64,000 nucleotides of DNA from Candidatus Eiseniibacteriota bacterium. GTDB lineage: Bacteria > Eisenbacteria > RBG-16-71-46 > CAIMUX01 > VGJL01. Position 1 is the stretch's first letter; each line of letters begins with the position of its first letter. The translations under genes and the position numbers were made by a program. Below are positions 4,570 to 64,000 of the stretch, piece by piece. The notes beneath the pieces were generated by a model. It worked only from the letters and a program-made list of their open reading frames with translations. It had not been told where the DNA came from and made no database searches. Location of the stretch: assembly GCA_963792585.1 (NCBI GenBank), contig CAWBWI010000003.1, positions 352,001-416,000 of the forward strand, in the 5' to 3' direction.

Positions 4570-4823
4570 GATCCAAACCTCGTTGCGCGGTCGGGGGATC
4601 CAGGGCCGTGACGCCCATGTGCGCTCGAGACGGCGTGCAACTCATCGTTCATCCAGGCGCAGGCGAGCTTCACCTCGCCACATGCGCGAATCATCGCGCG
4701 ATCGATCGATTGTCCGGGGAAAGGGAAGTTCTCGGCGGCCCGAACGGCATGGATGCCATAGAGGGCACCGCCGGGAACTTCCCGGATCCCCAGAGAATCA
4801 CGCTCCGTGCGGGAATCGCTCAT
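4566..4823 (-). pseudogene. aspA: Truncated aspartate ammonia-lyase/fumarase-family remnant
   Basis: 85 aa starting RTERDSLGIREVP..ALYGIHAVRAAENF, the N-terminus of this family. The rest of the protein is missing. Confidence 0.75.
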
Positions 4824-6244: not shown

Positions 6245-6246
6245 GC

Positions 6247-10837: not shown

Positions 10838-12577
10838 CTATCGAATCACTTCGCGCTCCGCGTAGCGCGTGTGCAGCAGGTGGTGGCTCTTCTCCCCCAG
10901 CGGTTCGCCAGGAACTCCTCGTACAGCCGCTGGATCGCCGGGTTCGCGTGCGACGCTCGGATCTGGCCGTCCCGGTCGATCACGTAGAGCGCCTGCATGC
11001 GCTGCGCGGACCGCGTCGGCATTGATGCGCCGCGGCTGGCCGCCGCCGCCGATGCAGCCGCCCGGGCAGGTCATGACCTCGATGAAGTGCAGGTCGCTTC
11101 GGCCGGCCCGGATCTGTTCGAGCAGCCGGCGGGCGTTCGCCAGCCCGCTGACCACGGCGACGCCCAACTCGAGTCCGCCGATGCGGACACGGATCTCCTT
11201 GACGCCGTCGAGGCCGCGGAGCGGCCTGCACGCTTGAGGTTCGTCCAGTTCCGGCCGGTCAAGCAGGAAGTGCGCCGTGCGCATCGCGGCCTCCATCACG
11301 CCGCCGGTCGCGCCGAAGAGCTTGCCGGCCGTGCGTGCGCTCGCCGAAGGGCGTGTCGGCGGCCTCCGGCTCGAGCCGTGGAGGATCGAGGCCGCGCATG
11401 CGGATGAGCTGGGCCAGCTCGCGCGTGGTCAGCACGGCGTCGATGTCGGGCCACGCCGTCGCGGCCCATCTCGGGCCGGCCGGCCTCGAACTTCTTCGCC
11501 GTGCACGGCATGATCGCCACGCTGAAGATCCGCTCGGGGTCGATGCCTTCGCGTTCGCGGCGAAGAAGCTCTTGATCACGGCGCCCAGCATCTGCTGCGG
11601 GCTCTTGCAGGTGGAGAGGTTGCGGGATGAGGTCGGGGTAGAACTGCTCGACGAACTTGATCCAGCCCGGCGAGCAGCTGGTCATCATCGGCAGCGTGCC
11701 GCCGTCGGCGATGCGATGGACCAGCTCCGAGGCCTCCTCCATGATCGTCAGGTCGGCGGAGAAGGCCGTGTCGAAGACGCGGTCGAAGCCGAGCCGCCGC
11801 AGGGCCGCGGTCATCGCGCCCGTCGACGTCGGCGCCGGGCTTGAGGCCGAACTCCTCGCCCAGGGTGACCGAGACCGCCGGCGCGTGCTGCACGACGACG
11901 ACCTTGCTCGGGGTCGGCGAGGGCCGCCAGCACTTCGCGGGAGCTGGCTGCTGCTCGGCCAGCGCGCCGGTCGGGCAGACCACGACGCACTGGCCGCAGT
12001 TGATGCAGCTCGAGACGTTGAGGCCCTCGTCGAACGCCGTGCCGACGCGCGGTCGCGATGCCGCGGCCGATGAAGTCGATCGCCGCCGACGCCTGCATCT
12101 CCTCGCACACCCGCACGCACTTGCCGCAGAGGATGCACTTCGCCGGGTCGCGGACGATCGACGGGCTCGAGACGTCCAGCGTCGCCGGCATTCTTCCGGC
12201 CGACGAAGCGCCGCTGCCGGACGCCGAGCTCCGCCGCCAGGTCCTGCAGCTCGCAGTCGCCGTTGCGCGCGCAGTAGAGGCAGTCGTCGGGGTGGTTGGC
12301 GAGCAGCAGCTCGACGATCGTGCGCGCGGGCGTTCGACGGCCCGCGGCGAGTGCGTCCGGACCTTCATGCCCGTCGGCGACCGGGAAGGCGCAGCTCGGC
12401 ACGAGGCCGCGCTGGCCTTCGACCTCGACGACGCACATCCGGCAGGCGCCGCTCGGCGGGAGGCCGTCCATGGTGGCACAGCGTGGGCACGCGTGATGCC
12501 GGCGCGCCGGAGCGCCGCGAGCAGCATCTCGCCCGGCTTGGCCTCGATCGTGCGGCCGTTGACTTCAGATCATGCAT
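10838..12577 (-). CDS. hydA: Group A [FeFe]-hydrogenase catalytic subunit (many frameshifts; start approximate)
   Basis: H-cluster motifs MTSCSPGW, IMPCTAKKFE and EVMTCPGGCIGGGG; N-terminal GACRMCVVE, HPDDCLYC..NGDC and KCILCGKCVRVC; C-terminal HHLLHTRY. Confidence 0.92.
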
Positions 12578-12595
12578 CGGCTCAGTACTCCGTTC

Positions 12596-14596
12596 TCAGT
12601 TGCGCCGAGGACTGCCATGCGAGACCGACAGGCGTCCACGCAGCTGCCGCAGCCGATGCACTTGTCCGGGACGATGTAGTGCGGGCTCTTCGGCGCGCCG
12701 ACGATCGCCTCCGCCGGGCACTTCTTCACGCAGACGCCGCAGCCCTTGCACAGCTCGGCGTCGATGGCGTAGACGAGCAGCTCCGTGCAGACGCTGCGCG
12801 GGGCAGTGGCGGTCGTAGATGTGCGCCTCGTACTCGTCGCGGAACCAGCGCAGCGTGCTCGAGCACCGGGTTCGGCGCCGTCTGGCCCAGGCCGCAGAGG
12901 CTCGTGTCCTGGATCACCCTTGGCCAGACTCCGCAGGTGCATGACGCCCTGGAAGCGCTCGAGCGCGCTCGAGTGCCCGTCTCGCTGCGCCGGCCGCGGG
13001 TGATCGCTTCGAGGATCTCCAGCATGCGCCGCGTGCCCTCGCGGCACGGGATGCACTTGCCGCAGCTCTCGCGCTGGATGAAGTCCATGAAGAACTTCGC
13101 CACGTCGACCATGCAGGTGTCTTCGTCCATGACGACCAGGCCGCCGGAGCCCATCATCGCGCCGACGGTCTTCAGCGACTCGTAGTCGATCTCGATGTCG
13201 AGGTGCTGCTCGGGGATGCAGCCGCCCGACGGGCCGCCGATCTGCACGGCCTTGTAGGCCTGGCCGCCGGGGATGCCGCCGCCGATGTCGAAGACGATCT
13301 GGCGCAGCGTCGTGCCCATGGCGACTTCGACCAGGCCGGTGCGCGCCACCTTGCCCGACAGGGCGAAGACCTTCGTGCCCTTGCTCGTTGCGGTGCCGAC
13401 CGCGGCGAACCACTCCGGCGCCGTTGGCGACGATGCCCGGGACGTTGGCCAGGGTCTCGACGTTGTTGATGACCGTCGGCTTGCCGAACAAGCCCCTGGA
13501 CGGCCGGGAACGGCGGCCGCGGGCGCGGCATGCCGCGTCTGGCCTTCGATGCTGTGGATCAGCGCCGTCTCCTCGCCGCACACGAACGCGCCCGCGCCCA
13601 TCTTGATGACGATGTCGAGGCTGAAGCCGCTGTCGAGGATGTTCTCGCCGAGCAGGCCGACTGCCTTCGCCTGGGCGATGGCGCGGCGCAGCCGCGCGAT
13701 CGCCAGCGGATACTCGGCGCGGATGTAGACGTAGGCCTTGGTCGCGCCGATGGCGTAGGCCGCGATGGCCATGCCTTCGAGCAGGCGGTGCGGATCGCCC
13801 TCGATGACCGCGCGGTCCATGAACGCGCCGGGGTCGCCCTCGTCCGCGTTGCAGATCAGGTACTTCTGGTCGCTCGGCGGTCTTGCGGGCGAACTTCCAC
13901 TTCTTGCCGGTGGGGAAGCCGCCGCCGCCGCGGCCGCGCAGCCCGCTCCTCTCGACGAGGTCGGCAGACTTCCCCCGGCGTCATCGTGACGGAGCGTCTT
14001 CGCCAGCGCACGGTAGCCGCCGCGGGCGATCGCGCATCGATCGAGGCTGGATCGATGACGCCGCAGTTGGCCAGCACCCAGCGCGTCTGCGGCGCGAAGA
14101 AGGGGTGCTCGTCGAGGAACGGGACGCCGGGCCAGGGCTCGAGCGTCGCTCCTGTGCTGGCCAGCGGATCTCCGTGGGCGCCATGCCCGAGAAGACGACG
14201 TCCAGGAGCGGCGCCACCTTCTCCTCGGTGACGCGCTCGAAGCAGAGCCGGGCCCGCCCGGGCAGCTGGATGTCGACGAGCGGTTCTTCGAGGCACAGAG
14301 GCCGATGCAGCCGACTTCGACGATCTCCGCCGTGATTCCGTGCTCCTCGAGGTACGTGCGTGCGGCCGCGATCATCCGCGCCGCGCCCGCGCCGAGCCCG
14401 CACGTGCCGGTGCCCACGAAGATGACCGGGCGGACCTGCGCCTCGCACCGGGCCGACCCGACTCGCTCGTGATCGCGATGCGGCAGGCCTCGCCCTCGTG
14501 ACACAAGGGGCCTTCGGTCAGGCAACGAACCAGGTCGGCGCACGGGCGCTCGGCGCATGCCAGCACTCGGCGCAGCAGCGGCGCAGTTGTCGTCAT
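12596..14596 (-). CDS. hydB: NuoF-like NADH/FMN-binding hydrogenase subunit (many frameshifts; end approximate)
   Basis: CNADEGDPGAFMDR, GAGAFVCGEETAL, GGPSGGC, ESCGKCIPCREG, C-terminal 2x[4Fe-4S], and an N-terminal thioredoxin-like 2Fe-2S domain (GTCGLGAGA, GCIGLC). Confidence 0.92.
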
Positions 14597-15072
14597 CTCA
14601 GGCGACCTTCCTTCCGATAGTCCGCAATGATCCGGCCGATGCTGTCGGCCGTCACGCCCCGCGTGGAACTCGCCGTTGACCGCGATCACCGGCGCCAGAC
14701 CGCACGCGCCGAGGCAGGCCACGACCTCGAGGCTGAACAGTCCGTCGCGCGTCGTCTGGCCGGGCTTGATCTTCAGCGTCCGCTTGAGGCCTTCGAGGCG
14801 TCTGCGCGACCCTTCACGTGGCACGCCGTGCCGCGGCAGACCTGGATGTGGTAGCGGCCCAGCGGCTGGAAACGGAACTGGTTGTAGAACGTCGCCACGC
14901 CGTAGATCTTGCTGGCGGGGAGTCCGAGGTGCCGGCCGATCTGAAGGATCGACTCTCGCGAGAGGAAACCATCGACCCCTTGGACCTCCTGGAGTAGGGG
15001 AATCAACGAATCCCTGCGGGCATCGGGGAATCTGGCCAGGATCGAATCGAGGTCCTTCGTTTCGGTTCTCAT
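14593..15072 (-). CDS. hydC: NuoE-like 2Fe-2S hydrogenase subunit (frameshifted)
   Basis: LIPLLQEVQ, GVATFYNQF, VCRGTACHVKG, VACLGACGLAP. ATGA overlaps with rex and hydB. Confidence 0.92.
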
Positions 15073-15701
15073 GAGGCCCTCTGGATGACGCCCTTCCGGG
15101 CGAAGTAGGCGGCCTTCTCCAGCGCATAGGTGATGTCCCGCTGCTCGACGTGAACATCCGGCGGCAAGGAGAGATGCGTGGGAGCGTAGTTGACGATCGC
15201 GCGAACACCGGCGGCTACGAGTTGATCGGCGATCGTGTGGGCATCGATGGCCGGAACGGCGATGATCGCTGCGCGGATGTCCATCTCTCGAATGCGATCG
15301 ACCATCTCGACCAAGGGGTAGCAGCGGCATCCGTGGACGACCCGATGGACCTTCTGCTCGTCCTTGTCGAATGCGGCCGCAATCCAAAGCTTCGGCCTGC
15401 GTCCCGAGAAGTAGGCGATGATCGCACGACCGAGGTTTCCGAGACCGACAAGAGCCATTCCCTGCCCCTCCGGTTCGTCGAGACACTCGCCGATCTTGGA
15501 ATGGAGCATGGCAACGTCGTAGCCGCGCGCGGGGCTGCCGGAGACGCCGATGTTCATCAAGTCGCGTCGGACCTGCGCGGGTGTGCTTCCCGCCATGGCG
15601 GCAAGCTCATGGGAATAGAGCCTGCCCCCCCGCGACGGGGGAAACTTGTCCAATAGGTGCCGGTAGAGACTCAGCCTCTCGACCATGCGTTCGGAGATCA
15701 C
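15069..15701 (-). CDS. rex: Redox-sensing transcriptional repressor Rex
   Basis: ERLSLY, SHELA..AQVRRDL winged helix, GYDV, Rossmann VGLGNLGRA, IVNYAP. GTG start at 15701 with GGAGG ribosome-binding site at 15706-15710. Confidence 0.93.
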   Translation of the reverse strand: MISERMVERLSLYRHLLDKFPPSRGGRLYSHELAAMAGSTPAQVRRDLMNIGVSGSPARGYDVAMLHSKIGECLDEPEGQGMALVGLGNLGRAIIAYFSGRRPKLWIAAAFDKDEQKVHRVVHGCRCYPLVEMVDRIREMDIRAAIIAVPAIDAHTIADQLVAAGVRAIVNYAPTHLSLPPDVHVEQRDITYALEKAAYFARKGVIQRAS

Positions 15702-15733
15702 GCAGCCTCCCGAGTTCATCGCGATTTCCATTG

Positions 15734-51880: not shown

Positions 51881-51909
51881 TTGACGGCCCCCCGGGATTT
51901 CTCCAGAAT
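51881..51909 (+). promoter_or_regulatory. Sigma70-type promoter for the tRNA/enzyme operon
   Basis: TTGACG (51881-51886), 17-nt spacer, CAGAAT (51904-51909), about 90 nt upstream of the tRNA 5' end. Confidence 0.6.
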
Positions 51910-52001
51910 TGAATGGCGGGATTGAGACGTCTCTCGTGCGTCGTGGGAGTCAAGGAACCGCGACCCGCTTCGATCCCCCGATTCAGGTGCGTGATTTTTG
52001 T

Positions 52002-52307
52002 GCGTCCGTAGCTCAATCGGAAAGAGAAGTCCCACATACGACGGCCCGAGCACGGTGACGCGGACTGAGAAGCGAGGATATGTCGGTAATGCCTTCTGAC
52101 GTCCGGGTCTGGGGGCAGGAGGAGAGCCGGAACCTCTCTTCCCGACGGATCCCCGGTATTCCCTTTCCTGCTTCGCCTGCCTTCAGTATCGGCGCCACCT
52201 TTCTGAAGGCACGCATGTCACGTGTGAATGCCTCTCGTCGTGGGAAGCTCAAGAGCACCGGCCTTATAATCCGGAGACTGCGGGTTCGAGCCCCGTCGGA
52301 CGCACCA
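52002..52307 (+). tRNA. tRNA gene with anticodon UAU (reads AUA), split by a 229-nt insertion in the D-arm
   Basis: Joining 52002-52026 to 52256-52307 gives a 77-nt cloverleaf: acceptor GCGTCCG/CGGACGC, D-arm GCTC-AATCGGAAA-GAGC, anticodon arm CCGGC-CTTATAA-TCCGG (TAT at 52265-52267), 5-nt variable loop, T-arm GCGGG-TTCGAGC-CCCGT, A73, encoded CCA. Confidence 0.85.
52027..52255 (+). ncRNA. Structured intervening sequence inside the tRNA (intron-like, class unknown)
   Basis: AAGAG is repeated at both junctions. The ends pair (TCCCA..CGACG with CGTCGTGGGA). Internal stems include TGCCTTCAG/CTGAAGGCA (52178-52211), GGCAGGA/TCCTGCT and CGGAC/GTCCG. Confidence 0.6.
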
Positions 52308-52357
52308 CCCTACACCGATTCATCCACCCCGAGGTCGCCGATGGAGGAGAGTCTCTC

Positions 52358-53422
52358 GTGAAACGACCGTCCACTCGCCAGGAGACTCTGGAGCGGGACG
52401 GCGCGCGGGAGAGAATCCCCGCGGGCGTGGATCCCTCGACGCGTCTCGTCGATCTGTCGCCCTACTACGGACACCTGGAGTGCTTTCAGGCTCTCCGTCC
52501 ACTCCTGGTGAAGACGAATCGCTTCACGTATGCGCCCAGCTACCCGCCGAACGAGCGGATGCAGAACACGTGGCTTTCGATCGCACTGGAAGGAATCGCG
52601 ACGCTTGCCGCGCATCGCACCGGGGAGGTCTGGGAGGATCTCGCGATCGTCGGCACGGGCAACGGCCTCGACGCCGTGGGGATCTCCCGAATCGTCCAGC
52701 CGAGGTCGATCATCGCCTCCGATATCCACCCGATCGCACTACAAGCGGCACGATGGAACATCGCCAACTATGTTGCGGAGGATTGCCGGGTCGCGGTTGT
52801 ACAAAGCGATCTCTTCGATGGATATCCGCCCGGGGCCGCATTCGACCTCATCTATGAGAATCTCCCGAACATCCCGGACGAGAAGGAGCTATTCGACGGG
52901 GTCCGCAGCGCGAGCTGTTTCGCGCCACGCGCCCAGCGGGTCGCCACGACGTTCGACCGGCATCTCCTGACCCTCCACCACGATTTTCTCATCCAAGCGC
53001 ACACTCGTCTCCGCGACTCCGGTTGGATCGTGGGTGTGATCGGAGGACGGATCCCGGTGCAGACGATTCACGAGCTGTTTGCGGACGCCGGGTATCGGTC
53101 CACGGTCGCCGCCTTCGGCCTCAAGATCCAGAGCGAGGGCGATGTGGTTCTGCCCGCCTATGCCGCAGCAGAGCAAGAGACCGGCGTCTCCTTCGTCTAT
53201 TACCATCCGCTCGAGGCGTGTCTTGCGATCGTGCGTGAGCTGTCGCAGCCGGAGGATCTTGCCGCGCGCGCGGAATACGCGGGACTGCTCACGGAACGAC
53301 TTCGGCCCCTCCAGATTCCGTCGACCGAAGCCGTACGCCTCCACGCAGGAGGAGCGGCCGTTTGCCACACGGTCTATGTCATGGCGGCTCAGCGAATCTG
53401 TGGTGGTCCCGCGAATGGGTGA
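52358..53422 (+). CDS. SAM-dependent methyltransferase, methionine S-methyltransferase (MmtN/MMT)-like
   Basis: IVGTGNGLDA, ASDIHP, FDLIYENLPNIP, IGGRIP, LKIQSE, VCHTVYV. GGAGGAG ribosome-binding site before the GTG. Confidence 0.75.
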   Translation: MKRPSTRQETLERDGARERIPAGVDPSTRLVDLSPYYGHLECFQALRPLLVKTNRFTYAPSYPPNERMQNTWLSIALEGIATLAAHRTGEVWEDLAIVGTGNGLDAVGISRIVQPRSIIASDIHPIALQAARWNIANYVAEDCRVAVVQSDLFDGYPPGAAFDLIYENLPNIPDEKELFDGVRSASCFAPRAQRVATTFDRHLLTLHHDFLIQAHTRLRDSGWIVGVIGGRIPVQTIHELFADAGYRSTVAAFGLKIQSEGDVVLPAYAAAEQETGVSFVYYHPLEACLAIVRELSQPEDLAARAEYAGLLTERLRPLQIPSTEAVRLHAGGAAVCHTVYVMAAQRICGGPANG

Positions 53423-54182
53423 AGCCGACTACTTCAGGGAAGCCTCCGTCATCGATGCGATGACGGCGGAGCATCGGATTCTGTGGCGAACCCTCTTCGT
53501 GGCCTGTGGGCCGCACATCCGACCCGGCATGCGGGTTCTGGATTTCGGTTGCGGCAACGGTGGGATGCTCGCCTATCTCATGCTTGGGGACGGGAAGAAG
53601 TGGCCCGGGTGTCACTGCTCCCTTGGGATGGGGATCGATCGTCCCGAGCTGAACGCTGTGCTGGCGATGGCCGGCGACCGGCTTGGCCGGGAGTTGCCCG
53701 TCGTGTTCACTTCCGCTTCTCCCCGCTCGTTCCCTGGCCAATTCGATCTCGCCCTTTCGCACGAGGTCATCTACCTCCTCTCGGACCTCGCCGAGACGTT
53801 CCAAGGGTTGCGCGCCGCGTTGAGGCCGGGCGGCGTGATCGCCCTGGCGACGGGATGCCACAGCGAGAACCTCCTCTATCCAAGATGGACGGAAGCTCTT
53901 GCGCGGGTGGGGGTGTGTGCCCACCCGTACGGGATCCCGGACTACGTTCGGGCGCTCCGCGATGCCGGCTTCGAGGATGTCGGCAGTGCCAGCATGCGGA
54001 TGGAGGTCGATGACTACGAGGAATGGCTAGAGGTCCGGGGAGACCCTGAGCCGAATCCCGAGTGGTTCTCCACGTCCGAGGAAGAGCGGCGGTATTACAC
54101 GGAGTTCGGCAAGACGCTGATCACCGCTCGCCGGGCGTTGGCCGAGGAGCCGTCGACTGTACCCCCGCGGGAAGGGCCGTGA
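53415..54182 (+). CDS. Class I SAM-dependent methyltransferase (255 aa)
   Basis: VLDFGCGNGG, FDLALSHEVIY, LRPGG. Overlaps both neighbours. Confidence 0.88.
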   Translation: MGEADYFREASVIDAMTAEHRILWRTLFVACGPHIRPGMRVLDFGCGNGGMLAYLMLGDGKKWPGCHCSLGMGIDRPELNAVLAMAGDRLGRELPVVFTSASPRSFPGQFDLALSHEVIYLLSDLAETFQGLRAALRPGGVIALATGCHSENLLYPRWTEALARVGVCAHPYGIPDYVRALRDAGFEDVGSASMRMEVDDYEEWLEVRGDPEPNPEWFSTSEEERRYYTEFGKTLITARRALAEEPSTVPPREGP

Positions 54183-56245
54183 CCGTCGCGCCCGACTATA
54201 TCCCCGAGACCATCGAGGCCAAGTGGCAACGGTTCTGGGAGGAGCGGGGGACGTTCCATGCGCATGCCTGCGGGGCGAGCAAGTTCTACTGCTACAATCC
54301 CGCGCCCTATGTCACCGGCACCCTTCATATGGGTCATGTCCGCAATTACACCTACGGTGATTTCCTCAGCAAGTTCCGGCGTCTTCACGGAGCGAACGTC
54401 CTCTACACGATCGGCTTCGACGCATTCGGCGTGCCCACAGAGGTGGCGGCCATGCGGAAACGGTTGGACCCGGCCGCCTGGACGGCCGGCTGCATCGGGG
54501 AGATGAAGAAGCAGCTTGTTCGAATGGGGTTTGGATTCGATTGGCGACGCTCCTTCTCCACGGCCGATGCGGACTACTACAAGTGGACCCAGTGGATCTT
54601 CATCGAGATGTTTCGGGAGGGCATCGTCTACGAACGGGAAGCGGAGACGCTCTGGTGTCCGCAGTGCGACATGGCCCTCGCCAAGTCGCTCACGGTCGAC
54701 GGCAGGTGCTTCCTGTGCAACATCGCAGTCGAGACGCGCGTCACAAGCCAGTGGTTCCTTCGCATCTCGCGCTATCTGGACCGTCTCAGGGATGATCTCG
54801 CCGAGGTCAGGGACCTCAACGGCCAGGCGCGTGCGGGACAGGAGAGTCTCCTCGCCTTCCGCAGCCTCTGGGGTGTCTGGTTGATCGAGCCGAAGACCGG
54901 GACCAAGGTTCTCGCCTGCATGGATTCTCCCGATGACTGGTCCAGGCATCTCGTGTTGGCGGTTCACCCTCAGGATTGGCCGACGCGACGGGCGCTCGCG
55001 GGGATCGCCGTCGAGCCGATCTCGGGCAGGTCCTTCGCAGTCGTCGTCGATCCTATGCTCGACTCGCTCTATCTGGATCAACCCGTGCTGAAGATTGTCC
55101 CGCGGGAGGGCGGAGCGCAGGCAATTGAACATGCGCCGGCGGATGGGATCTTCCCGCTCACGGTGAACGAACAGAAGGACTTCTCTGTTTCGCGCCAGCG
55201 ACTCTGGGGAACGCCCATCCCGATGGTCCGGTGTGAGACGTGCGGAGTCGTCCCGGTGGAGGCCGCGGATCTTCCCGTGCGGTTGCCGCGGATCGAAGCC
55301 GATGGCTCCGGACGGCTGCGGCGAACCGAACCCGGGTGGGACGTTCGCGCGTGCCCTTCATGCAAACGGCCGGCAATGCTCGATCCCCAGGTCATGGATT
55401 GCCACTTCGATGCGCTATGGCACTACTGGCGCCCCTGTGTTGGCTCCACGGCGGAGTTTCCTTTCGACTCGGACGAAGCCCGGTATTGGATGCCGGTCGA
55501 CCAGATCCAATTCGGCAGGGACACGATTCCGTTCCTCCTGACCCTGCGGCTGTTCACGAAGTTCCTGAAGGACCGCGGGCTCTCGGATTGCTCGGAGTTC
55601 GCCCGCGAGATGCTTGCGCACGGTCTGATCCTCATGGGCAATCGGAAGATGAGCAAGCACATCGGCAACGTCGTCGATCCGGAGCAAATGATCACCCGTT
55701 TCGGGGCGGACAGTCTTCGGTTCTATGTCCTCGCCAGGAGCGATCCCAGGAGCGATTATAGCTGGTCGGAGGCGAGCCTCGCGCGCTATCACGAGCTCTT
55801 GAAGCACTACTACGAGGATCTGGACCCTGAGACTTCGAGGGAGACAGCGGCGGCGGGAATGGAGGGATCGAAGACGGGATCCGCGGGGAAGTACCTGTCG
55901 ATCTTTCTCACAAAGGTGTTGCGCGAGGTGGAGGTACTGGAGTCGAGCGTTGAAAGTGGACGGTTCGACATCTACGCGCGGGCGGTTGCGCGAATCCTGG
56001 AAGCGCTTCATCTGTTCAAGGAGCGGTACTACACGCAGGCGGGATCGTGGGGGCGGGAAGCGTGGGGGAAGTGCGCGGAGCAGTCCATTCTCTACCTCGC
56101 CCCGATCGCGCCACACATCGCGGAGGAGTGCTGGGAGCGAAGCGGCCGAGCGCCGGGAGTCTTCGCGGGAGTGCGTTGGCCATCAGACGGCCCGATGGTC
56201 GTTCGAGATTTGGTGGAGGAAGCGAAGAGGCGGAGGCAGTCGTGA
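54179..56245 (+). CDS. Divergent leucyl-tRNA synthetase paralog (class Ia, 688 aa)
   Basis: IEAKWQRFW, PYVTGTLHMGHVRNY (HIGH), GFDAFG, YYKWTQWIF, SRQRLWGTPIP, KMSKHIGNVVDP (KMSKS), GADSLR, LAPIAPHIAEECW. GTGA overlap with the upstream gene. Confidence 0.9.
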   Translation: MTVAPDYIPETIEAKWQRFWEERGTFHAHACGASKFYCYNPAPYVTGTLHMGHVRNYTYGDFLSKFRRLHGANVLYTIGFDAFGVPTEVAAMRKRLDPAAWTAGCIGEMKKQLVRMGFGFDWRRSFSTADADYYKWTQWIFIEMFREGIVYEREAETLWCPQCDMALAKSLTVDGRCFLCNIAVETRVTSQWFLRISRYLDRLRDDLAEVRDLNGQARAGQESLLAFRSLWGVWLIEPKTGTKVLACMDSPDDWSRHLVLAVHPQDWPTRRALAGIAVEPISGRSFAVVVDPMLDSLYLDQPVLKIVPREGGAQAIEHAPADGIFPLTVNEQKDFSVSRQRLWGTPIPMVRCETCGVVPVEAADLPVRLPRIEADGSGRLRRTEPGWDVRACPSCKRPAMLDPQVMDCHFDALWHYWRPCVGSTAEFPFDSDEARYWMPVDQIQFGRDTIPFLLTLRLFTKFLKDRGLSDCSEFAREMLAHGLILMGNRKMSKHIGNVVDPEQMITRFGADSLRFYVLARSDPRSDYSWSEASLARYHELLKHYYEDLDPETSRETAAAGMEGSKTGSAGKYLSIFLTKVLREVEVLESSVESGRFDIYARAVARILEALHLFKERYYTQAGSWGREAWGKCAEQSILYLAPIAPHIAEECWERSGRAPGVFAGVRWPSDGPMVVRDLVEEAKRRRQS

Positions 56246-57042
56246 ATCGGGAAGTCATGTGCGACCACTTGGTTCGGTTGATCGACGATCTGGAACGGTG
56301 CTCCGGCGGGGCGCCGCGCGACCTGCTCCGCGCCGCGTTGTGCATCGAGCACGTCGTGATGTCCGATCTACTGCCTCCGGAGGAGGAGGACGCCGTCTTT
56401 GCGGACCCGAGGATCGCCGTGCGGGCGTCCGGTTGTCAGAGGATCTTCTCGGATCTCGAGAGCACCATCGAGCGGAGCATGGCCGAGGTTGTGCGGCTCG
56501 GCGGGGCCGAAACGACTTGGGCCCGGGAGAACGTGAGCCAGCACTACATTGCGCGTTACGAGTACCTTTCCCAGTGCGAGATCGAGCTGGCGCGGATGGG
56601 ACCGGAGGATCGTGTCCTCTTCATCGGGAGCGGGTACCTGCCGATCACGGCGTTCGAATACGTCCGTCAGTCCGGCTGCAAGGTTGACTGCGCCGACTTC
56701 GTCCCGGAAGCGATCGATTGCGCCCGAAAGATCACGGAACGGATCGGGATGACGGAGCGTGTGCGGTTCTTCCAGACGCGAGGGGAGCAGCACGATCCCT
56801 CCCCATACGACGTCATCCTCGTAGGTGTGCTTGCACTGCCGAAACGGGCGATCCTGTCCCACCTGGATGCGGGGGCGAAGGGCGGATGCCGTGTGCTGTG
56901 TCGGACCACCTACGGGCTGCGGCAACTCGTCTACCAGCAAGCGTCCTACGAGGTGCGGAGCCTCCGTCGACTCGTTCCGGGAGAACGAAGCGTGGCCCGT
57001 GGGGAGCGGGTCATTTCTGCGGAGCTCTTGAGGGCTTCTTGA
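56242..57042 (+). CDS. Nicotianamine synthase-like (CntL-like) SAM-dependent aminocarboxypropyl transferase (266 aa)
   Basis: YIARYEYL..CE, VLFIGSGYLPITA, YDVILVGVLA.PK..IL, CRTTYGLRQLVY. GTGA overlap with the synthetase. Confidence 0.8.
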   Translation: MNREVMCDHLVRLIDDLERCSGGAPRDLLRAALCIEHVVMSDLLPPEEEDAVFADPRIAVRASGCQRIFSDLESTIERSMAEVVRLGGAETTWARENVSQHYIARYEYLSQCEIELARMGPEDRVLFIGSGYLPITAFEYVRQSGCKVDCADFVPEAIDCARKITERIGMTERVRFFQTRGEQHDPSPYDVILVGVLALPKRAILSHLDAGAKGGCRVLCRTTYGLRQLVYQQASYEVRSLRRLVPGERSVARGERVISAELLRAS

Positions 57043-57306
57043 GACCCGGTTGGGAGGGTCGGGGCCCGATTCGCGAGCAAGCGCAGGTCGCATCGAGAAC
57101 CGAGATCGCCGGTGGAGGTTTGAAACACTGAGGATATCCCAGCCAGTTGAGCGTATAATTGAGTGCGACGGATCCTCCGGGCTCATCTGCTGAGAGGATC
57201 TGGTGCGACGGCGATCGACGGGGGGACCGCACCGCAGTTCTCCGCCGGTTCGGTCCCGACCTCGTTCGACCGCCGGTTCCATGTCACACGAAAGGAGGGA
57301 GTCCTC

Positions 57307-58029
57307 ATGATGAGGAAGGTCGCCCTGCTCCTTGTTCTGAGTTCCATTTTCGGAGGCGGCGCGCTCGCCGCCAATCCCAGCCTGAGTGCGGGAGGTGGCG
57401 GCAGCCCGAACGTCCTCAACTCCGGCCGAGAAGTTATCTGGAGTGAGCCGCCTGACCTCGAAGGTCTGATCGCCTCGTCGGAAGTCATCGGGCAATTCGC
57501 CCTTGAGACGGAAATCGCCAACGACTTCTATATCTCCTGGGATACCTGTATCGGCGGCGCTCGCTGGTGGGGCGGTTATTACAACAACAACGGCTGTAGC
57601 GACATTGGCATCGCGACAAACTGGAACCTCCGATTCTACGATGACGGCGGCTGCGTTCCGTTGACGACTCTTTCCGAGACGGTGGGCGCCTTCGCAAACG
57701 AGACTTTCATTTACTGCCAGGGCGGGTTCTACCCGGTCTTCCAGTACGAAGCCTACACATCATACGTCTACATCACGGCGAACACCCTGTACTGGTTCGG
57801 CGCACAGGCATCCGATCACGCGTTTCCGCCGCAGGTGGGCCGTATCGCCTCCGCATGGGTCGTCGGCTGCGACACGGTGTTCAAGAGTGCCTACTTCTCG
57901 TACCCCGACTGGACGCCCGGCATCGACGTGTTCGGTGTCGCCTTCGATGCCAGCCAGGAGTTCGAGAACTGGTGCATAGTTCCGACCGTGACGACCACGT
58001 GGGGCGCCGTGAAGGGGCTCTACCGGTAG
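57307..58029 (+). CDS. Array copy 1: secreted protein with C-terminal TTWGAVKGLYR motif
   Basis: AAGGAGG ribosome-binding site, signal peptide, WSEPPDL, IANDF, RWWGGY, YWF. One ATA at 57976-57978. Confidence 0.9.
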   Translation: MMRKVALLLVLSSIFGGGALAANPSLSAGGGGSPNVLNSGREVIWSEPPDLEGLIASSEVIGQFALETEIANDFYISWDTCIGGARWWGGYYNNNGCSDIGIATNWNLRFYDDGGCVPLTTLSETVGAFANETFIYCQGGFYPVFQYEAYTSYVYITANTLYWFGAQASDHAFPPQVGRIASAWVVGCDTVFKSAYFSYPDWTPGIDVFGVAFDASQEFENWCIVPTVTTTWGAVKGLYR

Positions 58030-58333
58030 GTCCGGCGAATGGGGAGGTCCGCTGTGGCGCAGCGGGCTTCAGGTGGCACACAAAGAGTTTGGTGGCGTTG
58101 GGGCGCTCCCGTCGATGCGGCGGGGGCGCTTCTTGCATCCGGCCGCGGCGGCCCTCGGTGGACTCCATCCCCGGGACGGTAGATAATCGACGGCAACAAT
58201 TCCCGACGGCTCTTGGGTCGGGGGTGCAGGCGGCTCGGCGGTCAAACGAGGACGGGCACCGCACCGTGACGCCCGCCTGGTCCCGCGCGTGATCGTCGTT
58301 GTGTGCTGTGACAAACCACAGGAGGGAGTCCTC

Positions 58334-59047
58334 ATGATGATACAGATCGCCCTTGTCCTGAGTCTGGTCGTTGCCAGCGGAGCGCTTGCCATCAACCCAT
58401 CCCTGAGCGGGGGCGGTGGCGGTACGAATGTTCTGAACTCCGGTCGCGAAGTCGTCTGGAGCGAGCCACCGAACCTCGACGGTTTGATCGGGTCGTCGGA
58501 GGTTATTTGGGAGTTCTATGTCGTGACGGAACTTGCCAACGATTTCTTCCTCACTACGAACCACGGCCTCGACATCGCTCGCTGGTGGGGTGGCTATTTT
58601 TACAACAGCAGTTGCGGCGATGTCGGTGTCGCCACAAATTGGAACCTAACATTCTACGATGATGTCGGTTGCATACCGGAACATGTGCTTTACGAGCGTA
58701 TGGGCGTCGATGCGAACGAGACTTTCGTCTATTGCCAAAGCGACGTCTACCCGATCTTCAGCTACGAGGTCGCCGATCTGAACTTCACAGCTCAGGCGAA
58801 TACCCGATACTGGTTCGTCGCGCAGGCAGCTGACCATACGTTCCCGCCCCAGGTAGGTCGCGTCGCTTCCGCCGGAGTCGTCGGCTGCGAGACCGTCTTC
58901 AGAGGGTCCTACTTCTCGTACAACTACTGGACTCCCGTTATCGATGTGTTCGGCGTGGCGTTTGATGCCAGCCAGGAGTTCGAGGAGTATCACATAGTCC
59001 CTACTGAAAGGACCACGTGGGGCGCCGTGAAGGAGCTCTACCGGTAG
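58334..59047 (+). CDS. Array copy 2 (most divergent)
   Basis: Same motifs, ending TTWGAVKELYR. ATA at 58994-58996, and also at 58340 and 58673. Confidence 0.9.
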   Translation: MMIQIALVLSLVVASGALAINPSLSGGGGGTNVLNSGREVVWSEPPNLDGLIGSSEVIWEFYVVTELANDFFLTTNHGLDIARWWGGYFYNSSCGDVGVATNWNLTFYDDVGCIPEHVLYERMGVDANETFVYCQSDVYPIFSYEVADLNFTAQANTRYWFVAQAADHTFPPQVGRVASAGVVGCETVFRGSYFSYNYWTPVIDVFGVAFDASQEFEEYHIVPTERTTWGAVKELYR

Positions 59048-59350
59048 GTCCGGCGAATGGAGAGGTCCGCTGTGGCGCAGCGGGCTTCAGGTGGCACACA
59101 AAGAGTTTGGTGGCGATGAGGCGCTTCCGTCGTTGCGGCGGGGCGCTTCTCACGTCCAGTCGCCACAGGCTTGGGTGGACATCGGCCTCGCAGGAGCAGA
59201 TACTCGTAGGCGGCGAATCCCTGCGGCTCTCGAGCCGGGGGATCCGACGGACTGCTGGTCGAGGGAGCCCGCCACCCACCGACCGTCGGTCCGGCCATGG
59301 ACCTGTTCGTCGTTGAGTCTCGTGACAGCCGAAAGGAGGGAATCCTCGCT

Positions 59351-60079
59351 ATGAGGAAGGTCGCCCTTGTCCTTGTCCTGAGCTGCGTCGCCGGGGGCGG
59401 CGCGCTGGCCGTCAACCCGAGCATCATGGCCGGCGGAGAGGGCACGCAGAACGTCCTAGACTCCGGTCGAGATCCCGTCTGGAGTGAGCCGCCCGATCTA
59501 GAGGGTCTGATCGCTTCGTCGGAAGTTATCGGGCAGGTCGGCCTCGAGACGGAAATCGCAAATGACTTCTACATCGACCATGACGAGTACATCAGTATCG
59601 CCCGCTGGTGGGGCGGATACTACAACAACAACGGCTGCAGTGACATCGGGTACGGCACGAACTGGAATCTGCGCCTCTACGATGACTTGGGCTGTGTTCC
59701 GGGGTCAGTGCTTTCCGAGACTCTAGGGCTGTCGGTGATCGAGGCCTTCGTATACTGCCAGGCTGGCCTCTACCCGGTCTTCGAATACTGGGCATGCGTC
59801 GAGTTCTGGGTCGCGGGGAATACATTGTACTGGTTCGGTGCACAAGCATCCGATCACACGTTCCCACCGCAGGTCGGTCGCGTGGCCTCTGCCGGAGTCG
59901 TCGGCTGCGACTCCGTATTCAAGAGCGCCTACTTCTCGTATCCGGATTGGACGCCCGGTATCGACGTCTTCGGGGTCGCATTCGACGCGAGTCAGGAATT
60001 CGGCAATGGTATCTGCATAGACGGACCTGTCCCTAATCAGCGGACCACGTGGGGCGCCGTGAAGGGGCTCTACCGGTAG
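59351..60079 (+). CDS. Array copy 3
   Basis: Same motifs. One ATA at 60017-60019. Confidence 0.9.
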   Translation: MRKVALVLVLSCVAGGGALAVNPSIMAGGEGTQNVLDSGRDPVWSEPPDLEGLIASSEVIGQVGLETEIANDFYIDHDEYISIARWWGGYYNNNGCSDIGYGTNWNLRLYDDLGCVPGSVLSETLGLSVIEAFVYCQAGLYPVFEYWACVEFWVAGNTLYWFGAQASDHTFPPQVGRVASAGVVGCDSVFKSAYFSYPDWTPGIDVFGVAFDASQEFGNGICIDGPVPNQRTTWGAVKGLYR

Positions 60080-60381
60080 GTCCGGCGAATGGGGAGGTCC
60101 GCTGTGGCGCAGCGGGCTTCAGGTGGCACACAAAGAGTTTGGTGGCGATGAGGCGCTTCCGCCGTTGCGGCGGGGGCGCTTCTTGCGTCCAGCCGCACAG
60201 GCTTCGGTGGACGTCGGCCTCACAGGAGCAGATACTCGTAGGCGGCGAATCAAAGCGGTCACTGAGCCGGGGGATCCGACGGACTGCTGGTCGAAGGAGC
60301 CCGCCTCCCACCAACCGTCGGTCCGGCCATGGATCTGTTCGCCGTTAGTCTCGTGACAGCCGAAAGGAGGGAATCCTCGCC

Positions 60382-61098
60382 ATGAGGAAGGTCGCCCTTG
60401 TCCTTGTCCTGAGCTTCGTCGCCACAGGCGGCGCGCTCGCCATCAACCCGGGCATCATGGCTGGCGGGGGGGGCACGCAGAACGTCCTCAACTCCAGCCG
60501 AGATGTTGTCTGGAGTGAGCCGCCCGACCTCGAAGGTCTGATTGCCTCGTCAGAAGTCATCGGGCAATTGGCTCTCGAGACGGAAATCGCAAACGATTTC
60601 TACCTTCCCTGGGACTACTGGATCTGCGTCGCCCGCTGGTGGGGTGGTTACTACAACAACAACGGCTGCGGCGATGTCGGCATCGCGACGAACTGGAACG
60701 TTCGGTTCTACGATGACGGCGGCTGCGTGCCTCTTACCCTGCTGAACGAGACGCTCGGCGCGTTCGCGAACGAGACCAGCGTCTATTGCCAGGATGGCTT
60801 CTACCCGATCTTTAGGTACGAAGTTGACGTCAGCATGCCGATCACCGGCAACACCCTGTACTGGTTCGGCGCGCAGGCTGCCGACCATGCGTTCCCGCCG
60901 CAGTGCGGCCGCGTTGCCTCCGGCTCCGTCGTCGGTTGCGACACGGTGTTCAAGAGTGCCTACTTCTCGTACTCCGACTGGACGCCCGGCATCGACGTGT
61001 TCGGTGTTGCGTTCGACGCCAGCCAGGAGTTCGTGATCGGGTGCATAGTTCCAACCGTCACGACCACGTGGGGCGCCGTGAAGGGGCTCTACCGGTAG
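60382..61098 (+). CDS. Array copy 4
   Basis: Same motifs. One ATA at 61045-61047. Confidence 0.9.
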   Translation: MRKVALVLVLSFVATGGALAINPGIMAGGGGTQNVLNSSRDVVWSEPPDLEGLIASSEVIGQLALETEIANDFYLPWDYWICVARWWGGYYNNNGCGDVGIATNWNVRFYDDGGCVPLTLLNETLGAFANETSVYCQDGFYPIFRYEVDVSMPITGNTLYWFGAQAADHAFPPQCGRVASGSVVGCDTVFKSAYFSYSDWTPGIDVFGVAFDASQEFVIGCIVPTVTTTWGAVKGLYR

Positions 61099-61406
61099 GT
61101 CCGGCGAATAGAGAGGTCCGCTGTGGCGCAGCGGGCTTCAGGTGGCACATAAAGAGTTTGGTGGCGATGGGGCGCTCCCGTCGATGCGGCGGGGGCGCTT
61201 CCTGCATCCGCCGCGCAGGACGACGTTTGACCCCCCGTCCCAATGAGCGGATACTCATAGGCGGCAGATCCTACCCGGCATGTGTGCCGACTGGATCTGA
61301 CGGTCCTGCGATTGTGGTGAGACCCGCCGCGTGGGCAGCAGCCAGTCCGGTCCGGGACTTGTTCGCACGTGAGTTCCGCAACAAGCGAAAGGAGGGAATC
61401 CTCGCC

Positions 61407-62129
61407 ATGAGGAAGGTCGCCCTTGTCCTTGCGCTGAGTTTCGTCGCCGCAGGCGGTGCACTCGCCGTCAATCCGAGCATCATGGCCGGTGGGGGGGGCA
61501 CGCAGAACGTCCTCAACTCCGGCCGTGACGTGGTCTGGGGTGAGCCGCCCGATCTCGATGGCCTCATCGCCTCGTCAGAAGTCATCGGACAACTCGCTCT
61601 CGAGACGGAAATCGCAAATGACTTCTGGGTTGATCATGACGGCTCCATCGATTGTGCCTGCTGGTGGGGAGGGTACTACAATAACAACGGCTGCGGTGAC
61701 ATCGGTATCGCTACGAACTGGAACCTCCGGTTCTACGATGACGGTGGCTGCGTTCCGCTGTCGGTCCTCGCCGAGACGGTGGGCGCCTTCGCTTACGAGA
61801 CCAGTGTGTACTGTCAGGGTGGGCTCTACCCGGTCTTCCAGTACGAAGCTGGCGTCGACTTCCAGATCACGGGGAACACATTGTACTGGTTCGGCGCGCA
61901 GGCATCCGACCACACGTTTCCGCCGCAGGTAGGCCGTATCGCCTCCGCAGGGGTCGTCGGCTGCGACTCCGTGTTCAAGAGTGCCTACTTCTCGTACCCC
62001 GACTGGACGCCTGGTATCGACGTATTCGGTGTCGCCTTCGATGCGAGTCAGGAGTTTAGGGAATACTGCATACTACCTGTCGGCACGCAGCGGACCACGT
62101 GGGGCGCCGTGAAGGGGCTCTACCGGTAG
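61407..62129 (+). CDS. Array copy 5
   Basis: Same motifs. One ATA at 62070-62072. Confidence 0.9.
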   Translation: MRKVALVLALSFVAAGGALAVNPSIMAGGGGTQNVLNSGRDVVWGEPPDLDGLIASSEVIGQLALETEIANDFWVDHDGSIDCACWWGGYYNNNGCGDIGIATNWNLRFYDDGGCVPLSVLAETVGAFAYETSVYCQGGLYPVFQYEAGVDFQITGNTLYWFGAQASDHTFPPQVGRIASAGVVGCDSVFKSAYFSYPDWTPGIDVFGVAFDASQEFREYCILPVGTQRTTWGAVKGLYR

Positions 62130-62432
62130 GTCCGGCGAATGGGGAGGTCCGCTGTGGCGCAGCGGGCTTCAGGTGGCACACAGAGAGTTTGGTGGCGATG
62201 AGGCGCTTCCGCCGTTGCGGCGGGGGCGCTTCTCACGTCCGGCCGCAGCAGGCTTCGGTGGACATCGGCCTCACAGGAGCAGATACTCGTAGGCGGCGAA
62301 TCCCTGCGGCTCTCGGGCCGGGGGATCCGACGGACTGCTGGTCGAGGAGCCCGCCTCCCACCGACCCTCGGTCCGGCCATGGACCTGCTCGTCGTTGGGT
62401 CTCGTGACAGCCGAAAGGAGGGAATCCTCGCC

Positions 62433-63158
62433 ATGAGGAAGGTCGCCCTTGTCCTTGTCCTGAGCTTCGTCGCCACAGGCGGCGCGCTCGCCATCAACCC
62501 GAGCCTGAGTGCGGGGGGTGGCGGCAGCCCGAACGTCCTCAACTCCGGCCGATACGTCATCTGGAGTGAGCCGCCTGACCTCGAAGGTCTGATCGCCTCG
62601 TCGGAAGTCATCGGGCAATTCGCCCTCGAGACGGAAATCGCCAACGACTTCTACGTCCCCTGGGATACCTGTGTTGGTCTCGCTCGCTGGTGGGGAGGCT
62701 ACTACAATAACGCCGGTTGCGGTGACATCGGTGTCGCTACGAACTGGAACCTCCGATTCTACGATGACGGTGGCTGCGTTCCGTTGTCGATCCTGTCCGA
62801 GACGGTGGGGGTCTTCGCGAACGAGACCTTCATCTACTGCCAGGGCGGGTTCTATCCGGTCTACCAGTACGAAACCGCCGCAGTATACGTCGCCGTCACG
62901 GCGAACACGCTGTACTGGTTCGGCGCGCAGGCATCGGATCACGCGTTTCCGCCGCAGGTGGGCCGTATCGCTTCTGCATCGGTCGTCGGTTGCGACACGG
63001 TGTTCAAGAGTGCCTACTTCTCGTATCCCGACTGGACGCCTGGCATCGACGTGTTCGGTGTCGCCTTCGATGCCAGTCAGGAATTCGAGAACTACAATTG
63101 CGGCATAGTTCCAACTCAGAAGACCACGTGGGGCGCCGTGAAGGGGCTCTACCGGTAG
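62433..63158 (+). CDS. Array copy 6
   Basis: Same motifs. One ATA at 63105-63107. Confidence 0.9.
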   Translation: MRKVALVLVLSFVATGGALAINPSLSAGGGGSPNVLNSGRYVIWSEPPDLEGLIASSEVIGQFALETEIANDFYVPWDTCVGLARWWGGYYNNAGCGDIGVATNWNLRFYDDGGCVPLSILSETVGVFANETFIYCQGGFYPVYQYETAAVYVAVTANTLYWFGAQASDHAFPPQVGRIASASVVGCDTVFKSAYFSYPDWTPGIDVFGVAFDASQEFENYNCGIVPTQKTTWGAVKGLYR

Positions 63159-63462
63159 GTCGGGCGAATGGAGAGGTCCGCTGTGGCGCAGCGGACTTCA
63201 GGTGGCACACAGAGAGTTTGGTGGCGTTGGGGCGTCCCTGTCGTTGTGACGGGGGCGCTTCATACGTCCAGCCGCCACAGGCTTCGTTGGACATCGGCCA
63301 CACAGGAGCAGATACTCGTGGGCGGCGAATCCCTGCGGCTCTCGGGCCGGGGGATCCGACGGACTGCTGGTCGAGGGAGTCCGCCTCCCACCGACCGTCG
63401 GTCCGGCCATGGACCTGCTCGTCGTTGGGTCTCGTGACAGCCGAAAGGAGGGAATCCTCGCC

Positions 63463-64000
63463 ATGAGGAAGGTCGCCCTTGTCCTTGTCCTGAGCTTCGT
63501 CGCCACAGGCGGCGCGCTCGCCGTCAACCCGAGCCTCATGGCCGGTGGGGGGGGCACGCAGAACGTCCTCAACTCCGGCCGAGATACCTACTGGAGTGAG
63601 CCGCCCGATCTGGAGGGTCTGATCGCGTCCTCGGAAGTCATCGGGCAGTTCGGCCTCGAGACGGAAATCGCAAACGACTTCTATCTCACCCAGAACGCCA
63701 CTGTCTGGGCCGTCTGGTGGGGTGGGTACTACAACAACAATGGTTGTGGCGACATCGGTGTTGCAACGAACTGGAATCTTCGGTACTACGACGACGGTGG
63801 CTGTGTTCCGCTGAACACGGTTTCCGAAGGTCTCGGCGCGTATGCGAACGAGAACTTCGTCTATTGTCAGGGCGGGTTCTACCCGATCTTCCGGTACACG
63901 GCCGACGTCTGCTGCGCGGTTCTCGCGAATACGCTGTACTGGTTCGGCGCGCAGGCAGCCGATCACGCGTTCCCGCCTCAGGTCGGCCGCGTAGCCTCTG
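63463..64000 (+). CDS. Array copy 7, truncated by the window end
   Basis: ATGAGGAAGGTCGCC start and an open frame with WSEPPDLEG, IANDF, WWGGY and YWFGAQ to the end of the window. Confidence 0.88.
   Translation, partial: MRKVALVLVLSFVATGGALAVNPSLMAGGGGTQNVLNSGRDTYWSEPPDLEGLIASSEVIGQFGLETEIANDFYLTQNATVWAVWWGGYYNNNGCGDIGVATNWNLRYYDDGGCVPLNTVSEGLGAYANENFVYCQGGFYPIFRYTADVCCAVLANTLYWFGAQAADHAFPPQVGRVAS

Follow-up and report, generated by a model that had tools for sequence, protein, structure and literature searches.

We analysed a window of 64,000 nucleotides from a Candidatus Eisenbacteria genome (contig CAWBWI010000003.1; the window is G000:C3:352001-416000, G000 being the genome that carries the locus). 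Its last part, window positions 51881..64000, holds a single locus in which a promoter, a giant tRNA gene with a UAU anticodon, four mutually overlapping enzyme open reading frames (ORFs; 52358-57042) and an array of secreted-protein genes all lie on the + strand. This layout, with at least seven secreted paralogs, had been described in an earlier note on the same DNA, and the ORF list, Rfam and the profile matches bear it out. The architecture of the RNA and of the genes is real and categorically new. The reading that we favour, at a probability of roughly 0.55, is that the tRNA tethers to selected mRNAs, in which AUA is then read as a non-canonical amino acid derived from S-adenosylmethionine (SAM).

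According to this proposal, three SAM enzymes would make a non-canonical L-amino acid, in the simplest case a methylated aminocarboxypropyl adduct, either free or on the tRNA. A paralog of leucyl-tRNA synthetase (LeuRS), here called LeuX, whose pocket is rebuilt and which would not edit, would load it onto tRNA(UAU). An unpaired loop of the D-loop domain would kiss a hairpin loop in the 3' untranslated region (UTR), holding the tRNA on the selected mRNAs, where it would outcompete the lysidine-containing tRNA-Ile2 at the AUA just after the folded domain. Secreted surface proteins would gain a new residue in an exposed linker, and AUA would remain Ile elsewhere. The residue would be the 23rd genetically encoded amino acid, SAM-derived and inserted at AUA only in guide-paired mRNAs, and the locus a natural, programmable, mRNA-addressed orthogonal cassette; we would put the chances of this at about even.

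Linker ATA codons and their 3' UTR elements

The seven array genes carry an ATA codon 7-10 codons ahead of a C-terminal TWG..K..YR motif. They lie at 57307..58029 (linker ATA at 57976), 58337..59047 (58994, with other ATA codons at 58340 and 58673), 59351..60079 (60017), 60382..61098 (61045), 61407..62129 (62070), 62433..63158 (63105) and 63463..64000, the last continuing past the window to G000:C3:416179, with its linker ATA and UTR element just beyond the window. The ATA reported in the same linker of all six complete copies is thus present in the seventh as well. ATA is rare in this genome (1697 of the 75,981 Ile codons in the gene calls, 2.2%). The 11 linker-ATA genes first found contain 101 ATC, 12 ATT and 13 ATA codons, and 11 of these ATA are in the linker. 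The residues surrounding the ATA vary freely, and a fixed DNA context around it, which we considered, was not seen.

The association extends beyond the array. A second array of the same genome, on C6, has the linker ATA in 4 of 4 genes, and an equally close array on C1 in none. As the earlier note had suggested checking, positionally conserved ATA codons were also found beside the related cassettes described below: the gene behind the cassette of metagenome contig L016 has a linker ATA, and so have both genes beside the cassette of genome G017, although their family has no detectable likeness to the array except for the terminal motif. Altogether, the linker ATA occurs in five domain families over two genera; one family is shared by the two genera and in each has the linker ATA along with that genus's own UTR element. 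Each ATA directly follows a complete domain and precedes the terminal motif or a Cys-rich module (in a two-domain target there is one per domain), and the modules and motif downstream of it are fully conserved.

The terminal motif, (S/T)WGxx(K/R)xx(Y/F)R, ends 89 genes in G000, 38 in G016 and 57 in G017 and is often preceded by a Cys-rich module or a V/T-P-T linker. It has the appearance of a sorting signal, and the array proteins match no Pfam or NCBIfam model. In the cassette-less G016 (99% complete) only 2 of the 38 motif genes have a late ATA, both within the motif itself, and none has it in the linker.

After the stop codon, all 11 first-found linker-ATA genes and the L016 gene have an element in which GUGGC(G/A) occurs three times; it is missing from the C1 array, whose genes have no linker ATA. 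In the window the elements lie at 58043..58133, 59061..59150, 60093..60183, 61112..61202, 62143..62233 and 63172..63262. The first copy forms the loop (UGGCG) of a 10-pair hairpin, which is accompanied by two more copies and followed by a long, 15-pair hairpin. The stems covary around the invariant loop: among 14 related sequences 97.7% of the cells are paired, with 11 cells changed on both sides, as compared to about 50% when the pairing is slid. The element is located 50-290 nt from the ATA codon. Rfam, applied to five element loci, gave no selenocysteine insertion sequence (SECIS), only a neighbouring tRNA.

Element and codon are also associated genome-wide. In G000, 13 of 4555 gene calls, belonging to three domain families, have three copies in the 110 nt that follow the stop codon, and all 13 genes contain ATA, including one in a linker. 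The corresponding counts were 1101 of 4225 genes with no GTGGC(G/A) copy, 78 of 305 with one and 3 of 12 with two. Two of the 13 genes were found by the element alone; they belong to other domain families and have ATA exactly in the inter-domain linkers, the longer one after each of its two domains. The triple-motif pattern, found 13 times in G000, is absent from five other genomes of the family. It matched 8 of 205 other genomes; the matches listed there have the look of coding or tandem repeats.

The tRNA carries a word complementary to this element. Within its D-loop insertion, a guide hairpin (52179..52210) includes GGCGCCACC at 52191-52199, in which CGCCA (52193-52197) is predicted to be unpaired with a probability near 1 and matches the UGGCG loop of the UTR. 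Comparison of the window with L016 and L017 shows an unchanged guide loop on a stem that varies. The most enriched UTR 7-mer of the late-ATA sorting-motif genes in G000, chosen blind to the tRNA, was GTGGCGC (13 of 22 genes vs. 2 of 67); its complement is present and unpaired in the insert and occurs in 28 of 2000 shuffled inserts.

The insert of G017 does not contain the G000 guide word and exposes a different unpaired one, GGGAAGUA; in the G017 targets, the complementary U(A/G)CUUCCC is found in UTR hairpin loops. Among the 57 sorting-motif genes of G017, eight have ATA in the last 100 codons; five of these carry the element word, a sixth (L261) has a one-base variant of it in a hairpin loop, and two lack it, while one gene has the word and no ATA. 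The exact 10-mer TACTTCCCAG accounts for 3 of 68 pattern matches, namely the tRNA and two target UTRs. Specificity seems to be set by pairing of the 3' UTR element with the D-loop insert, which the earlier note does not mention, and, since the guide differs between lineages, the system looks reprogrammable.

Two further observations concern genes of this kind. In an array paralog at G000:C3:658799-659512 the 3' element has decayed to two copies and the ATA lies within the domain instead of the linker; this gene is possibly a target that left the system. In addition, behind each of three near-identical sorting-motif genes on C6 (gene ends 627221, 629974 and 636427) stands one and the same long inverted-repeat element, which overlaps the start of the next reading frame, in a cassette-like arrangement.

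The giant tRNA(UAU) and the distribution of the cassette

Downstream of a sigma-70-like promoter (51881..51909; TTGACG-17-CAGAAT, 9 of 12 matches, a comparison with the consensus only), the tRNA gene spans 306 nt (52002..52307). Its body is complete, with acceptor stem, D-stem, UAU anticodon arm (TAT at 52265-52267), T-arm, A73 and an encoded CCA, and resembles tRNA-Arg(UCU). By tRNA identity rules, the change of anticodon would release such a body from ArgRS. The D-loop measures 238 nt (241 in L016 and L017, 183 in G017), and its roughly 230 extra nt form a structured insertion (52024..52250) that matches no Rfam family, intron and transfer-messenger RNA (tmRNA) families included. The 3' part of the tRNA reaches 35 bits with the Rfam tRNA model, for which the gathering score is 29. 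ARAGORN did not detect the gene and called zero tRNAs in the window. Homologs were found at L013, L016 and L017, and the UAU anticodon is retained in all four copies found. The G017 tRNA differs from that of the window through compensatory changes in the D-stem and acceptor stem, and its insert is unrelated in sequence.

In three RNA runs with a related strain, contig depth over 52011-52221 was 4,216, 8,621 and 43,041, as compared to about 10 or less over the genes of LeuX and of the nicotianamine-synthase (NAS)-like enzyme, values that, being taken from contigs, do not allow a strict ranking of genes; a DNA run was flat at about 30. In two studies, the deep RNA contigs continue beyond the insert as far as the anticodon stem, where they break off near 52260-52262. 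No joint that skips the insert was seen in the three RNA runs, a weak absence because they provide contigs only and would hardly capture a spliced tRNA of 77 nt. These data hint that the insert stays in the RNA; a spliced form is also possible. The earlier note had spoken of a split tRNA; what we find is a single gene with a 238-nt D-loop. An intron or split-tRNA reading was set aside, though left open, as there is neither a group I or II intron family in Rfam nor a spliced joint in the RNA contigs; splice-site rules for tRNA, such as the bulge-helix-bulge, were judged by eye.

Two other ideas about the tRNA were abandoned. The insert is not an inverted copy of the UTR element, given that blastn of the tRNA region against the G000 genome returned only the region itself and two tRNAs. 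An ordinary-sized second tRNA(UAU) (G000:C3:75042-75118) was rejected as a part of the system: it sits in a 100-kb piece of different composition, G000:C3:1-100000, and has no counterpart in five genomes of the family, where its best matches are Val and Asn tRNAs. This piece and G000:C5:1-45000 deviate in composition from the rest of the bin and look foreign (figures for the two: 70-71% GC with almost no ATT/ATA; 39-56% GC with a negative tetranucleotide correlation).

Strong matches to methyltransferase 1, LeuX and the NAS-like enzyme occur in 2 of 206 genomes of the phylum, G000 and G017, always together; ten further genomes have weak methyltransferase matches only. G017, which belongs to another genus, shows the same cassette order, the giant tRNA(UAU) included, with 41-46% protein identity. 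L016 carries a full cassette (64-72% identity) and metagenome contig L017 the tRNA and the first gene. The co-occurrence of synthetase, methyltransferase, NAS-like enzyme and tRNA(UAU), on which the earlier note had made its idea depend, was hence found in three lineages (G000, G017 and L016). Protein searches added 12 full-length LeuX sequences, 21 of methyltransferase 1 (at least 41% identity) and 20 of the NAS-like enzyme (at least 45%); contigs of equal length among these suggest that cassette enzymes lie together in at least six further cases. When 80 of 186 metagenome relatives of methyltransferase 1 were kept and compared, the two close ones carried the tRNA, and none was seen at the other 78 loci, which are distant and mostly short. 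A scan of genome contigs for more lineages gave one spurious locus, and viral and plasmid searches returned nothing.

LeuX and the SAM-dependent enzymes

LeuX (54179..56245) has the bacterial LeuRS fold of class I. It retains HMGH and KMSKH, and residues H50, G52, H53, D81 and K490-K493, corresponding to the HIGH and KMSKS motifs and to the Asp that binds the amino group, are invariant in 13 homologs; by these motifs LeuX would be an active class I aminoacyl-tRNA synthetase. The pocket, on the contrary, has been rebuilt. In E. coli LeuRS numbering, the offset of which is inferred, the changes are M40P, L41A, F493H, Y499H, Y527I, G529F, E532R, H533D and H537F, all invariant or nearly so across the 13 homologs. 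All six positions of the canonical leucine pocket (M40, L/F41, Y499, Y527, H533 and H537) are altered. The resulting pocket (P41, A42, H409, H415, R447 and D448 of LeuX) is, as far as the alignment tells, more polar and larger than that of LeuRS and a poor fit for Ile or Leu. Since the structure model has low confidence across pocket residues 412-451, the description of the pocket relies on sequence alignment, and a gap near D448 sits differently in two reference alignments. M40, L41, Y499 and Y527 are among the LeuRS sites that were randomised for acceptance of non-canonical amino acids (10.1101/2024.11.27.625662).

LeuX also lacks the CP1 editing motifs, its editing domain being degenerate, and the C-terminal domain that contacts tRNA-Leu; the latter loss fits a tRNA without a long variable arm. 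It scores 391 bits with TIGR00396, whose cut-off is 548. The 13 sequences form a clade (support 100, in a quick tree of 50 rows made without bootstrap) that is sister to orphan LeuRS paralogs. These orphans (P0032, P0038, P0044, P0055, P0059, P0060, P0062 and P0069) have altered pockets as well and are mostly 716-749 aa long; one is a GNAT fusion, and where the source is named it is Acidobacteriota or Solirubrobacterales.

The NAS-like aminocarboxypropyl transferase (56242..57042) matches PF03059 with 45.3 bits, above the gathering score of 27.1, and stays below the CntL equivalog cut-off. It is closest to thermonicotianamine synthase (profile E 1e-25) and CntL, both of which transfer the aminocarboxypropyl group of SAM onto an amino acid. 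By analogy, its product may have an L-alpha-amino acid end and a long polar side chain, which would suit the enlarged polar pocket of LeuX. Methyltransferase 2 (53415..54182), of class I, is closest to N-methyltransferases, the best solved match being phosphoethanolamine N-methyltransferase. Methyltransferase 1 (52358..53422) is SAM-dependent and has a HemK-type fold, to which its top scores belong; the profile match to 7VVV, the Met S-methyltransferase MmtN, is weak (E 0.011), yet it is the longest. An MmtN assignment is judged by homology together with Asp69, Ser101, Leu102, Cys121, Glu127, Arg132 and Glu250. Of the enzyme identities first proposed, the NAS-like enzyme, the LeuRS paralog and the two methyltransferases stand in Pfam and NCBIfam, and the MmtN-like label finds weak support. 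A Met-derived product of the cassette is possible. No elongation-factor gene was found in the cassette among the profile matches (G000, G017 and L016 loci).

Decoding of AUA, alternative explanations and known systems

A genome-wide reassignment of AUA can be rejected. TilS scores above its cut-off in G000 and G017 and is present in all five other genomes of the family, and G000 also has a tRNA(CAU) of the tRNA-Ile2 type and a canonical LeuS (C1:260148). In paralog alignments, 153 ATA sites face I in 38%, V in 21% and L in 15% of the cases, as compared to 52%, 19% and 13% for 7906 ATC sites. The cassette genes of L016 themselves use ATA four times, in at least one case where I or V is conserved. 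If AUA has a special reading, it must accordingly be confined to particular mRNAs. The central idea of the earlier note, that neighbouring genes are acted on at AUA by a tRNA and a synthetase of their own together with SAM enzymes, came through the genomic tests (co-occurrence in three lineages, linker ATA in unrelated families, remodelled pocket). Its likening to pyrrolysine did not, because TilS, tRNA-Ile2 and the Ile-like columns are all present.

Several observations weigh against recoding by a tethered tRNA. Of 77 sorting-motif genes of G000 without the element, 13 have a late ATA, one of them linker-like, and gene L270 of G017 has a linker-like ATA and no element. In the blind test on G017, CTTCCC was enriched (7 of 8 vs. 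4 of 49), but its complement occurred in 141 of 2000 shuffles, and the top 7-mer was a stem word lacking a complement in the tRNA. A 6-7-nt core of the G017 guide is found in the G000 insert too, mostly paired there, and is absent in L016 and L017; two ATA-less G017 paralogs bear a hairpin with a partial match. Moreover, the counts are inflated by paralogs, with two independent guide/element pairs in all. The anticodon arms are irregular (a C31-U39 mismatch in G000, C33 in G017), which could make tRNA(UAU) a weak decoder unless tethered. A 230-nt D-loop appendage would have to fit and move through the ribosome, for which no precedent is known to us. Finally, at L018:983-2678 homologs of methyltransferases 1 and 2 (35% and 32%) directly follow a thioesterase gene of the non-ribosomal peptide synthetase type, with no tRNA; the two methyltransferases may be a portable building-block module.

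The placement of every ATA between a complete domain and the sorting motif or Cys-rich module, one per domain in the two-domain target, would also be expected if the same tethering brought a special aminoacyl-tRNA that ends the chain at AUA, as tmRNA or puromycin would, and released a tagged, unanchored domain without sorting motif beside an Ile-read full-length form. We hold this to be unlikely, given that the modules and motif behind the ATA are fully conserved and that no dedicated release partner was found in the cassette (G017 and L016 loci). The giant D-loop may block translocation, and both methyltransferases resemble N-methyltransferases and could block an amine; a blocked alpha-amine, however, could not accept the chain.

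Ile-like alignment of AUA throughout the genome is what one would expect of a purely regulatory device, similar to bldA but mRNA-addressed. In this case the tRNA, once tethered, would deliver one of the standard amino acids, such as Ile, or make the ribosome pause at AUA, and the SAM enzymes would modify the tRNA with aminocarboxypropyl or methyl groups. Transfer of aminocarboxypropyl groups onto tRNA bases is known chemistry, the RNA contigs end close to the anticodon loop, an effect to be expected of a modified base, and ProRSx/tRNA-ProX is a paralog pair that inserts a standard amino acid. Nevertheless, Ile or Leu would fit poorly into the polar and larger pocket of LeuX, small amino acids are the substrates of the enzymes most closely related to the NAS-like one, and a rare-codon switch would have little leverage where TilS and tRNA-Ile2 already read AUA. 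We consider this explanation rather doubtful. It is quite improbable that the locus does two separate jobs, the enzymes, LeuX and tRNA making a metallophore or similar small molecule off the ribosome and the insert acting as a small RNA on mRNA stability: the NAS family does make metallophores, LeuX is sister to orphan paralogs of which one is GNAT-fused, and the insert region is abundant in the RNA runs, but the conserved UAU anticodon and the linker ATA in five domain families of two genera, found only with the element, would be left unexplained as inherited passengers, and the three complete loci contain no transferase, carrier or transporter gene.

Recoding by a tethered tRNA has its closest parallel in selenocysteine (Sec), where a codon gains a second meaning only in mRNAs with an RNA structure (PMC9622424). 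The locus shares with Sec a codon marked by an mRNA structure, a dedicated tRNA and dedicated biosynthesis, and the element follows the stop codon as do the 3' UTR SECIS of archaea and eukaryotes. It differs in using AUA and a UAU anticodon instead of UGA and UCA, in having its own synthetase rather than SerRS plus conversion, and in that the element is apparently read by the tRNA loop itself and not by SelB or SBP2, the protein readers of SECIS. The tRNA-Sec of G000 lies elsewhere (C1:683832); a cis mRNA structure marking genes is present here, its function being predicted. In layout the locus recalls the compact pylTSBCD cassette, which combines a tRNA, a synthetase and three biosynthetic enzymes beside target genes. 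However, PylRS is of class II and reads UAG, with a use of Pyl that has been described as ambiguous, whereas here a class I synthetase derived from LeuRS is found with SAM chemistry, an mRNA address and a sense codon that keeps its Ile decoder; PylRS, tRNA-Pyl(CUA) and PylBCD are absent from the cassette, which has a LeuRS fold, methyltransferases and a NAS-like enzyme instead.

Streptomyces ProRSx, a synthetase paralog encoded alongside tRNA-ProA, -ProT or -ProN, whose anticodons are foreign, gives a sense codon two meanings in a deliberate mistranslation (PMC9437257 and PMC10404621). That system inserts a standard amino acid proteome-wide with tRNAs of normal size and no biosynthetic genes. 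The present locus, in contrast, has a synthetase with an altered pocket, a D-loop domain of 230 nt, three SAM enzymes and UTR elements specific to certain genes. In tmRNA, too, a tRNA body carries a large structured insertion and serves on a subset of translating ribosomes; the present RNA has a full anticodon arm, an insertion in the D-loop, no noted tag ORF and no Rfam tmRNA match, and G000 has its own separate tmRNA. Duplicated LeuRS enzymes that charge weakly or have a disrupted editing domain are LeuRS-I of Sulfolobaceae and LeuRS2 of Halobacteria (PMC9437257). They are of archaeal type, leucine-directed and without a partner tRNA, whereas LeuX is of bacterial type, with its own clade and a different pocket. 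In some bacteria a tRNA-Ile(UAU) replaces the TilS-dependent tRNA-Ile2 and reads AUA; here, by contrast, TilS and tRNA-Ile2(CAU) are present, the scaffold is tRNA-Arg-like and the tRNA is linked to a non-Ile synthetase. We found no description of such a system in listings of the open-access literature, and a term look-up in PMC13092985, PMC12636597 and PMC9437257 gave no mention of Eisenbacteria.

If true, recoding at guide-paired mRNAs would join selenocysteine and pyrrolysine as a third natural expansion of the genetic code, the first one in which a sense codon is used and the amino acid has dedicated biosynthesis. It would follow an undescribed rule, the tRNA itself finding the mRNA through base pairing, and would show how a sense codon gets a second meaning without mistranslation of the proteome. 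mRNA-selective incorporation is what genetic-code engineering lacks, and the system is small (five genes and one reporter). Even under the alternative explanations, a tRNA addressing 3' UTRs through a D-loop domain of 180-240 nt would be a new kind of RNA, missed by standard tRNA scanners.

Elsewhere in the window, at 12565-15731 and 3343-7269, lie putative NADH-dependent hydrogenase-like and hydrogenase-maturation-like genes, several of them apparently fragmented in the gene calls.

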